In this document: positions 23,601 to 26,600 of the stretch, piece by piece
How the letters are laid out: the number at the start of each line of letters is the position of its first letter
Numbering within the stretch: position 1 is the first letter of the stretch
Source: Longimicrobiales bacterium
GTDB taxonomy: Bacteria > Gemmatimonadota > Gemmatimonadetes > Longimicrobiales > Gaopeijiaceae
Assembly (NCBI GenBank): GCA_965238005.1
Contig: OZ250165.1
Coordinates: 3,328,001 to 3,392,000, forward strand
Direction of reading: 5' to 3'
DNA length: 64,000 nt
Program-made: the position numbers

Positions 23601-26600
23601 AGGTCCTTGGCTTCCTTCAGACCCAGGCTAGTGACCTCGCGGACCACCTTGATGACCTGGATCTTCTTGTCGCCAATGCCTTCGAGCACAACGTCGAACT
23701 CGGTCTGCTCCTCGGCAGCGTCCGCCCCACCGGCCGCGGGCCCGCCCGCGGCTGCCACGGAGGCGGCCAGGGCAGTGACGTTGAACTTGTCCTTGAACGC
23801 GTCGACGAACTCCGACAGCTCGAGGACAGTCATGTTGCCGATGGTCTCGAGAAGCTCTTCGTGGTTGGTAGCCATGATCGTGGCTCTCTCCTCAGTGCAC
23901 CCGGCCTCGGGCCAGGGTTGGGCGTGAATTCCCGGTTGTCACCTTGTTTAACAGGAGGCTCCTCCATGTGCCAGGAGGCTACTCCCCCTCGCTCTCCTTC
24001 TGCTGCTTGAGAGCATCCAGGAGACCGGACATCTCCTGAAGCTTGCTCTCCAAGGCACTCGCCAGCGCAGCCATGGGCGCTTCCAGGGCTCCGGCCAGCT
24101 CGGCCAGGAGCTGCTCCCTAGGCGGTAGCTGGGCCAAACGGACGATCTCGTCGGCCGAAACCACCTTGTCGTCGAGGAGGCCGAGCTTGAAGACCGGCTT
24201 GTCGCCGTGCTCCTTGGCGAAGTCGCTGATGATCTTCGCGGGCTCGACGACCCCCCCGTAGCCCAGCACGACCCCGGTGGGGCCGAGGAGGGCATCGGTA
24301 ATGTCCGGTACCTGCAGCCCTTCGAGGGCGCGCTTGACCAGGCGGTTCTTCACCACCAGGTACTCGGCCCCGGAAGCCCGGAGGTTCTGCCGGAGGCTCG
24401 TCATGGACTTCACGTCCAGGCCGGTGAAGTCGGTGAGGTAGATCACTGGAGCCTGTTCGACTTTCTCGCGGAAATCCACGACGAAGCTTTCTTTTTCCGC
24501 ACGGTTCATCTATGGGCTCCGGCGAAACAGGTTGGGATCGATGGGGACGCCGGGTCCCATGGTGCTGGAGACCGTGACGCTCCTCACGTACGTGCCCTTG
24601 GCCGCTGACGGCTGGGCCCGAACGATGGAGTCCATGATGGCGCCCAGGTTGTCCCGCAACTGATCGGGTGAGAACGAGACGCGGCCGATGGGCGCGTGCA
24701 CGTTCCCGGTCTTGTCCACGCGGTACTCGATCTTCCCGCCCTTGATCTCCTTCACGGCACGACCGACGTCGAAGGTCACCGTTCCACCCTTGGGAGTCGG
24801 CATGAGTCCCCGGGGGCCGAGAATCCGACCGAGGGGCCCCACCTTGCCCATGAGATCCGGAGTGGCGACGCACACGTCGAACTCCCACCACCCTTGTTGG
24901 ATCTTGTCGACGTACTCGGTGCCCACGTAGTCGGCGCCGGCTTCCGCCGCCTCGGTCTCCTTCTCGCCCTGTGCGATCACCAACACGCGAACAGTCTTAC
25001 CCGTGCCGTGAGGAAGGACGACGGTGCCCCGCACGATCTGATCGGCCTTGCGGGGATCTACGCTTAAGCAAGTGGCGACCTCGACTGTCTCATCGAACTT
25101 GGCCGACGCCATATCCTTGACCATCTGGACCGCTTCGTCGGGCTTGAACTGGACGCCTACAGGCACTTTGGCCTTGGCGTCACGGAATCTCTTACCGTGT
25201 TTTGGCATGGCCCTGAGCCGGCTTGTTCGTCCTCCCACCCGTGGCGGCTCACATCGAGTGGTTCCGTGGACTTCTCGAGCATGGGCGCGGGCGGTATCTC
25301 CTCCTCGCTCCCTGCTGTTCGCTTCGCTCTCAGATGGTCGCTGCGGGAAGATCCCGACGCCGCCCCCCTGAGAAGTCACTACACAGCGTGTTTGCTTCTA
25401 GACAGCGTTTTGCTTCTGGTTTTGTACCTCTTGCTGGCTTGGTGCCTCGTCCTGCTCCTGGCCTTCTACCTCTTCCGGGCTTCGTACCTCTATCTGGTCT
25501 CGTGCCTCTCCTGAGCCTTCTAAGACGATGCCCATGGAGCGGGCGGTTCCGGAGAGCATCCGGACGGCGGCGTCCATGTCCGTCGTATTCAAGTCGACCA
25601 TCTTGGTCTCGGCGATCTCCTCGAGCTGCTTCCGGGTGACCGTGCCCACCTTTTCTCTGTTGGGCTCACCCGACGCCTTCTGGAGACCCGCAGCCTTCTT
25701 GATGAGGAAGGACGCCGGCGGCGTCTTGGTGATGAAGGTAAACGACCGGTCCGAATAGACCGTGATCTCCACCGGAATCGTCACGCCGGGCTGCTGCTGA
25801 GTCTTGGAGTTGAACTCCTTGCAGAACTCCATGATGTTCAGGCCGTGCTGGCCCAGCGCGGGCCCCACGGGCGGCGCCGGGTTCGCCTGGCCTCCCGCGA
25901 CGTGAAGCTTGATGAAACCGGTGACCTTCTTCGCCATATTCTATTCCTGAGAGGTTGCCGACAGGGTCTCTAGAACCCCTTCAACTGCGTGTAATCCAGC
26001 TCGACCGAGGTGGGCCGTCCGAAGAGCGAAACCTCGACCTTGACCTTGCCCTTTTCCACGTAGACCTCCTGGATCGTCCCGGAGAAGTCGTTGAAGGGAC
26101 CCTGCACGACCTCAACGGCCTGCCCGACGTGGAACGGGATCTCCTCATGTGTCCCGTCGTCCTCCTTCTCCACCTCGATCCCGAGGATCTTGTTGATCTC
26201 ATCCTCGTGCAGAGGCTGCGGTGCCTTCCCCGCACCGACAAACTTGATGACCCCCTGGATGTTGTTGATGGTGTGCATGGTCCTCTCGTTGAGATCCATG
26301 TTCACCAGCACGTATCCGGGGTACAAGCGCTTCGTGACCGTGACGCGCTTTCCGTTGCGAATCTCGACCACGTCCTGTGTCGGGACGACCACGTCCCGGA
26401 TCTCCTTGCCCTCGGCCTCGCCGGCCTCGTCTTCGATCCGACGCTGAATCAGCTTCTGGACCTTGTTCTCATGCCCTGAGTACGTCTGGATCGCGTACCA
26501 CTTGGAGTAAGCCATGATCATGTGCGTCGTACTCAGGCCCCGAAGATGCCCATGATGAAGTTGATCACAGTCCGTGATGCCACGTCCATTACCCAGATGA

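Follow-up and report, generated by a model that had tools for sequence, protein, structure and literature searches.

The spacer between rplK and rplA in this Longimicrobiales bacterium (Gemmatimonadota) holds a 57-nt RNA element (25271–25215, minus strand). Judged from its letters and pairing, it is a complete mimic of the uL1-binding site in helices 77 and 78 of 23S rRNA, circularly permuted and pseudoknotted. The element is a candidate autogenous operator: uL1 probably binds it and represses translation of its own mRNA through the permuted, pseudoknotted site. Mimicry of rRNA by the operators of ribosomal proteins is a textbook case. The occurrence of permuted sites in nature would mean that uL1 recognizes a three-dimensional junction regardless of strand order. 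It would also explain why surveys with canonical-order models would miss such sites, and would predict hidden permuted operators for other ribosomal proteins and in other phyla. The pseudoknot offers a testable route by which a protein bound well upstream could control a start codon that lacks a Shine–Dalgarno sequence. Since the RNA is 57 nt long and uL1 cross-reacts between E. coli and archaea (PMC3616713), culture of the organism is unnecessary for testing.

Locus and anatomy of the leader element

The element belongs to a gene cluster of the order tuf–rpmG–secE–nusG–rplK–rplA–rplJ–rplL–rpoB–rpoC on the minus strand of the window, the whole 64-kb stretch of DNA that was analysed (table 1). 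Genes are named from sequence and gene order. The encoded uL1, the presumed ligand, has a sequence of the usual type when compared with solved uL1 chains.

Table 1. Features of the rplK–rplL region, numbered along the window.
Feature	Position	Strand	Remarks
rplK (uL11)	25398..25937	-	179 aa; 189 nt separate its end from rplA
P1, 5' strand GUCC (helix-78 mimic)	25268..25271	-	outside the interval of the first-pass annotation
L1 internal loop, 6-nt side	25262..25267	-	begins with G or A; A at the end in 50/50 loci
P2, 5' strand: CCAC core + 3 bp (helix-77 mimic), bulged A, UG	25252..25261	-	
P3, 5' strand GAGCCG	25245..25250	-	inside the P2 loop
P2, 3' strand: CA + 7 nt with GUGG end	25235..25243	-	
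L1 internal loop, 2-nt side	25233..25234	-	GA in 42/50 loci, AA in 8/50
P1, 3' strand GGAC	25229..25232	-	
A-rich linker	25221..25228	-	8 nt (relatives 5–12 nt)
P3, 3' strand CGGCUC	25215..25220	-	stops 6 nt short of the rplA AUG, where a Shine–Dalgarno sequence would lie
rplA (uL1), presumed ligand	24510..25208	-	232 aa; E 8.6e-86 to solved uL1 chains
GGAG, Shine–Dalgarno-like, for rplJ	24517..24520	-	within the 3' end of rplA
rplJ (uL10)	23979..24509	-	named from sequence and gene order; without leader
Hairpin ahead of the rplL Shine–Dalgarno sequence	23899..23918	-	across the family
rplL (bL12)	23495..23875	-	103 nt past rplJ; name from sequence and gene order

The predicted fold consists of P1 (GUCC/GGAC), a 6 × 2 internal loop, P2 (7 + 2 bp) and a 6-bp pseudoknot helix, P3. 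Once the UG/CA pairs of P2 are counted, both loops of this H-type pseudoknot are 1 nt long. The first-pass annotation had proposed a pseudoknot of CCAC/GUGG and GAGCCG/CGGCUC around the L1-site word GUGGGAGG. All three are found at the place claimed, with the last pseudoknot strand ending 6 nt before the AUG, and the likeness to an L1 site, the H-type topology and the position upstream of rplA are all supported. The extent needs revision: the pseudoknot, P2 and P3 were right, but the 5' end of the element is at 25271, beyond the interval given, and its third helix, GUCC/GGAC, had been missed. The CCAC stem is present as described and is longer by two pairs (UG/CA) beyond a bulge.

P1 and P2 are both part of the minimum-energy fold of the window sequence, and the stability of the single sequence is at the level of its shuffles (z 0.29). 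Folding without protein gives the inner pair of P1 a median probability of 0.32 and P2 one of 0.99. A search of the whole window against Rfam at gathering score returned four tRNAs only, with no match in the leader. Repeating the search on the leader region at E values up to 10 gave chance-level matches only.

In the closest relatives, L002 (1420–1482) and L031, the rplK frame crosses the whole L1 site and stops 18–20 nt before rplA, so that the operator would be unfolded by ribosomes translating rplK. In one close relative, RNA contigs carry 92 other letters in place of 25286–25525, which points to near-kin variation of that stretch. The uL11 of the window ends in an acidic C-terminal extension of 38 aa (25398–25514, minus strand); extensions of 30–42 aa, alike in their first part, occur in L025, L038 and L042. 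A promoter scan of 23200–29000 found no sigma-70-like promoter, a result that says nothing on a separate rplA promoter in this GC-rich genome, and a terminator scan found no minus-strand terminator inside the operon. The contigs from RNA runs come from relatives that are mostly 90–99% alike. One of them, from X1, runs from the end of rplK through the element and over the greater part of rplA; it marks presence in an RNA library, which is no proof of transcription or strand.

Strand order of the L1 site

The genome's own 23S rRNA (C1:1582238) has GUGG-GA-GGCU first and AGCC...CCAC second, whereas the leader has its CCAC-bearing strand first. The published consensus of mRNA sites is a single hairpin in the order GUGG-GA-helix-loop-helix-bulge-CCAC (PMC3616713), and in every case the L1 site is presented as a single irregular stem–loop (PMC10931766). 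Permuted and canonical descriptors built by identical rules were applied to the 100 nt upstream of rplA. The permuted form was found in 36/48 family loci and the canonical form in 1/48, in a non-random set of 28 best matches (all positive) and 20 hand-picked loci (8 positive; 9 from genus g3). L037 was left out as a duplicate, its leader being identical to that of L013 of the window's family. Among outgroup loci, mostly Actinomycetota, 40/63 had the canonical form and 2/63 the permuted one, both of the latter with a canonical site as well. In shuffled sequences the permuted descriptor matched 2/940 times for family leaders and 1/1260 for the outgroup; the canonical descriptor never matched. 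Because only one of the 48 family loci has the single stem–loop in canonical order, the element counts as a variant of the site and not as an ordinary member of the alignment in PMC3616713. Applied genome-wide and without the pseudoknot, a loose descriptor matched 19 places in the genome, too unspecific to serve as a sole criterion.

The letters of the site are kept across the 50 loci that could be parsed, and each class of letter in the published consensus recurs in the swapped halves. The core of the helix-77 mimic is CCAC/GUGG in 49 and CCGC/GCGG in one. Known sites bind uL1 with a Kd of 25–50 nM and lose this binding on G-to-A changes in the GUGG-GA core. The long side of the internal loop, of 3–7 nt, begins with G in 42 loci and A in eight and ends with A in all 50, end bases that the parser favours without requiring them. 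It starts with A in the window, as in the genome's own 23S rRNA. The C-G pair that closes the helix-78 mimic is present in 50/50, and the pairs outside it covary. Known contacts of uL1 fall on the duplex of helix 77, on the short strand that joins the two helices and on helix 78 at its base; they involve the junction and not the helix ends (PMC5689012). We infer that these contacts would be independent of which helix end is capped. The AGCC/GGCU pairs within P3 are those of the genome's own helix 78; they would fit a tandem duplication of a canonical site and are offered as a lead only.

Conservation and distribution

An alignment was made of 47 of the 50 parsed loci, with the diverged L023, L026 and L120 left out. 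Its pairing reaches 90.7% and it contains 67 two-sided changes, values that exceed all 500 shuffles and all slid controls and are inflated by sequence kinship. P2 is 90.5% paired, and two-sided changes occur in 3/9 of its pairs. P3 is 99.3% paired. Four of its six pairs are nearly invariant, and its covariation consists of one pair (GC 38, AU 7, GU 2) together with wobble changes. The pairing of the near-invariant positions is supported by the covarying pair, by the wobbles and by the sister family f3, which has a P3 of 7–8 bp with a different sequence in the same place (L023, L026; L112 is degenerate by eye). For P1, a purpose-written parser that picks the best register gives CG 47 and UA 3 at the second pair, and CG 24, UA 22, UG 3 and GC 1 at the third (9 changes on the tree). 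RNAalifold on a MAFFT alignment did not recover P1, which is 78% paired there because short-bulge members are misaligned. On the rplA tree the pairs of P1 and P2 undergo between 3 and 17 changes, and six are required for the AU form of the P3 pair that varies. In alignment A2, 2/14 references are misplaced.

Metagenomes were searched with a held-out pattern that contained P2 and its loop only, without P1 pairing and without the 3' strand of P3. At least 120 loci matched; among the 80 listed, 70 lie directly upstream of rplA. The listed loci include 65 distinct ones linked to rplA. P3 has 6/6 pairs in 65/65 of these, and P1 has at least three pairs in 65 and at least four in 57. The variable P3 pair in the loci listed is GC in 49, AU in eight and GU in six, and never A-C. 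A complete P3 was found in 0/9 of the other loci listed, two of which are cut by contig ends.

Model R1 finds one copy per genome in 116/151 family genomes (65/81 genera), a count that includes training genomes and positions checked in part, and a single match in the window's own genome. It matched 0/134 genomes from other families; R1 is weak on diverged members (L120, L023, L026), so this zero bounds the present sequence type only. Unpublished genomes are included in the tally of other families, as in those of best-match loci and of the L10 leader below, and no claim depends on any one of them. The twelve family loci that lack the element group in a single clade (support 0.99). Near rplK and rplA this clade showed no L1 site, and L128 within it may keep a degenerate copy. 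The element is dispensable, given this clade and several other families without a detected L1 site.

Proposed control of rplA

The distance from the end of P3 to the rplA AUG is 6–9 nt in 47/48 scored loci. The footprint of a 30S subunit covers this stretch, and P3 therefore occupies ground that the subunit must take up. Shine–Dalgarno pairing with the genome's own 16S tail (−5 kcal/mol or stronger) is found for rplA in only 13/50 element-bearing loci, against 47/50 for rplJ, 49/49 for rplL and 27/48 for rplK. In family loci without the element rplA has it in 10/12, which represents one loss event.

The following sequence of events is proposed. (i) Free uL1 would bind the P1/P2 junction as it does on 23S rRNA. 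(ii) Bound uL1 would fix the marginal P1 and thereby the pseudoknot. (iii) The fixed pseudoknot would block productive initiation at rplA. (iv) Newly made 23S rRNA would titrate uL1 off the operator. In the permuted order P2, the helix-77 mimic, is the closed hairpin and P1, the helix-78 mimic, is open-ended, and this would let the pseudoknot join the protein site, 20–60 nt upstream, to the initiation region. A P1 that folding predicts to be marginal without protein suits a ligand-fixed switch. The uL1-bound operator may well keep the 30S subunit off the mRNA, an outcome that stands a little above an even chance. Just short of even is the prospect that the subunit would load and then be trapped, by analogy with E. 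coli rpsO, for which entrapment is established (PMC10931766).

Three other readings of the leader differ in what they make of uL1. The pseudoknot might mainly serve initiation or protect the mRNA, with uL1 having little or no effect and the L1-like letters being a relic. The scarcity of Shine–Dalgarno sequences at rplA beside the element and their usual presence after its loss in the single clade would fit, as would a P3 sequence conserved beyond the needs of pairing and an rplK frame that reads across the whole element in L002 and L031. Yet the unpaired letters read by uL1 are retained in 50/50, and the same core recurs in two further wirings upstream of rplK with unrelated flanks, which is unexpected of a relic; this account is considered unlikely.

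Alternatively, P1/P2 and P3 could be alternative folds switched by uL1, the internal GGAGG acting as a distant Shine–Dalgarno sequence when P1 is open. P1 is indeed marginal alone, and in 48/50 loci the distance from GGAGG or GAAGG to the AUG is fairly constant at 22–27 nt. That distance is far outside normal Shine–Dalgarno spacing, however, inspection of the alignment reveals no conserved hairpin that would shorten it, and GGAGG belongs to the L1 consensus anyway. P1 and P3 have no bases in common, and the linker is kept at 5–12 nt, as expected if it spans P2 with both helices formed. Such a switch is held to be very unlikely. The ligand might, lastly, be uL11 or the uL10–bL12 complex, the element standing in for a lost L10 leader. 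A substitute control might be expected where the L10 leader is found in 0/151 phylum genomes, but the element fits the L1 consensus and not the kink-turn L10 consensus, and L10-type words occur in 0/49 rplA ends. This last reading is scarcely credible.

The rplA–rplJ junction and the proposed reach of control

The preferred reading remains autorepression of rplA by uL1 at the permuted site. The first-pass annotation went further and held that rplA and rplJ abut or overlap, that the L10 leader is gone and that uL1 controls rplA–rplJ–rplL. The junction is as it described: the gap is 0 nt in the window (rplA stop at 24510, rplJ start at 24509) and −4 to +5 nt in 48/48 family loci. The exception in layout is L036, which has the element, yet carries a 160-nt GC-rich insert without an Rfam match between rplA and rplJ. 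Gaps of at most 8 nt occur in 96/119 coded loci of the phylum (the longest is 74 nt), and short gaps are also seen in the element-less 12-locus clade and in families without a detected L1 site. In the outgroup the gap is at least 91 nt in 36/37 readable loci. The L10 leader model RF00557 matched 0/151 phylum genomes in a search that was positive in only 4/14 controls, and 0/11 long-gap phylum loci versus 1/7 outgroup loci. With so few controls positive, gap length outweighs the model as evidence. Absence of the L10 leader agrees with both the lack of intergenic room and the search; its loss is phylum-wide, however, and includes loci where no L1 site is seen.

A stop–start overlap is the usual sign of translational coupling, and from the overlap a coupling of rplJ to rplA is plausible. 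Repression of rplA would pass to rplJ through this overlap, a step given an even chance. Its extension to rplL is fairly unlikely. Being upstream of the element, rplK would escape repression. The claim of control over all three genes keeps the overlap in its favour and is weaker than first stated, in view of separate Shine–Dalgarno sequences, the lack of an occluding fold and the short gaps throughout the phylum.

A narrower reading shares the operator and opposes the operon-wide claim: uL1 would repress rplA only, with rplJ and rplL starting independently and their feedback lost or tied to another signal. If uL1 does repress rplA, this is nearly an even prospect. It draws on the Shine–Dalgarno sequences of rplJ (47/50) and rplL (49/49), on short gaps even where there is no L1 site, and on L036 with its element and 160-nt gap. 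Only 16/49 loci have an rplJ start that is more closed than positions inside rplA, and no special structure that would hide it was found, its opening energy lying within the internal control. Further downstream, rplL begins at least 56 nt beyond rplJ and behind a separate hairpin of its own. Against this stands the overlap or near-contact of stop and start in 48/48 family loci. The rplJ start is also less open than its neighbours, with an opening energy of 13.8 kcal/mol versus 9.7 for rplK, 10.0 for rplA and 7.3 for rplL, and in Methanococcus vannielii an L1 site precedes co-transcribed rplA–rplJ–rplL (PMC3616713).

Third-position entropy was considered as a sign of hidden structure at the rplA end. 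It is 1.44 in the last bin versus 1.54–1.65, from six sites only, and is not a signal. The hairpin upstream of rplL lies about 8–10 nt before the Shine–Dalgarno sequence, with stems CCGGC/GCCGG, CUGAC/GUCAG and CCGAC/GUCGG (L002–L022, L111–L123). A pattern drawn from the same loci finds it in 32/47 family loci and in 0/38 loci of other coded families. This hairpin may set the higher level at which bL12 is made, or it may shield the mRNA.

Relation to known systems

Two terms served to look for the phylum in the published survey of leaders: 'Gemmati' and NC_012489, the latter taken here to be Gemmatimonas aurantiaca. Neither occurs in the supplements searched (PMC3616713), in keeping with the first-pass statement that the survey lists no Gemmatimonadota. 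Its other statement on this source, that the rplA–rplJ–rplL layout is given for Methanococcus, is also correct: the L1 site of M. vannielii and the co-transcribed genes are described there (PMC3616713). In that L1–L10–L12 operon the L1 site comes before rplA, followed by rplJ and rplL, as here; rplK lies elsewhere in M. vannielii but directly upstream in the window (PMC3616713).

The uL1 mRNA sites of E. coli, Firmicutes, Actinobacteria, Cyanobacteria and Methanococcus (Fu et al. 2013, PMC3616713) share with the present element the core letters and the asymmetric GA loop. The place directly upstream of rplA is that of L1 sites in Actinobacteria, Cyanobacteria and Chloroflexi (PMC3616713). Compared with the sites of that survey, the halves here have changed places, it is the other helix that bears a cap, and this cap is pseudoknotted. 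The text of PMC3616713 does not contain 'permut', and no L1-site pseudoknot is described in the parts compared, which comprised about 100 of 710 L1 alignment rows and the consensus lines. The leader and helices 77–78 of the genome's own 23S rRNA (which form the L1 stalk's head) both have a GUGG-GA-GG strand with a CCAC partner; the rRNA differs in its canonical order, a longer loop B and the lack of a start-codon pseudoknot. The L10 leader, RF00557, belongs to the same operon; the gene spacing of this family leaves no space for it.

A parallel in mechanism is the rpsO operator to which uS15 binds in E. coli and in mycobacteria (PMC10931766), an H-type pseudoknot at the initiation region that is stabilized by a ribosomal protein; such stabilization is predicted for the present element. 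The mycobacterial pseudoknot is located upstream of the initiation site, as is that of the window (PMC10931766). The rpsO operator differs in its ligand, uS15, and in its determinant, a U-G/C-G motif (PMC10931766). A permuted or pseudoknotted L1 site, the topology proposed here from sequence, was not found in print within the literature searched, which included PMC10931766, PMC7247131, PMC5689012, PMC5309774 and PMC8303175. This means 'not found' rather than 'absent', as structural papers on L1–mRNA complexes were outside the scope and the supplements of PMC7247131 may list further leaders.

Other arrangements in Gemmatimonadota

Families f4, f5 and f8, whose rplK overlaps or touches rplA, carry an L1 motif upstream of rplK. 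This motif is opened inside the long side of the internal loop, a second permutation with a 5' pseudoknot. Its order is a strand of 4–7 nt, 1–4 nt with a final A, CCAC, a stretch complementary to the opening strand and GUGG, followed by GA or CA, a hairpin, G and the Shine–Dalgarno sequence. It was parsed in 25/36 loci (f4 12/19, f5 10/14, f8 3/3; L172–L199, L156–L197 and L143–L148), and in 0/720 shuffles; about six more fit by eye. The core is CCAC/GUGG in 17 and CCGC/GCGG in eight. A third arrangement, in L122, L124 and L134, keeps the canonical order, with a cap complementary to a Shine–Dalgarno-like GGGAGC 10–13 nt before the rplK start. These are the three loci kept from a loose canonical-order parser (type C) that also matched 11/720 shuffles and coding DNA several times. 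L122 (G290) has two rplA matches in its genome and groups with L124 and family f2, not f7; it is possibly a stray contig. In f6 and f9–f12 the surroundings of rplK and rplA showed no L1 site.

A broader proposal would have Gemmatimonadota rewire the L1 motif in three ways, each pseudoknotted: cut open at helix 78 upstream of rplA, cut open within the internal loop upstream of rplK, or in canonical order with a cap that pairs with the Shine–Dalgarno region. In the window's family the knot would be both a landing pad without a Shine–Dalgarno sequence and a trap locked by uL1, and uL1 alone, through coupling, would have replaced feedback by uL10 on the stalk proteins. As a whole this is tentative and rather unlikely.

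Further observations in the window

The rpmG–secE spacer is a common place of tRNA-Trp; none was called in this spacer of the window. The spacer between tuf and rpmG contains a long imperfect hairpin (26956–27059) with weak matches to miRNA families.
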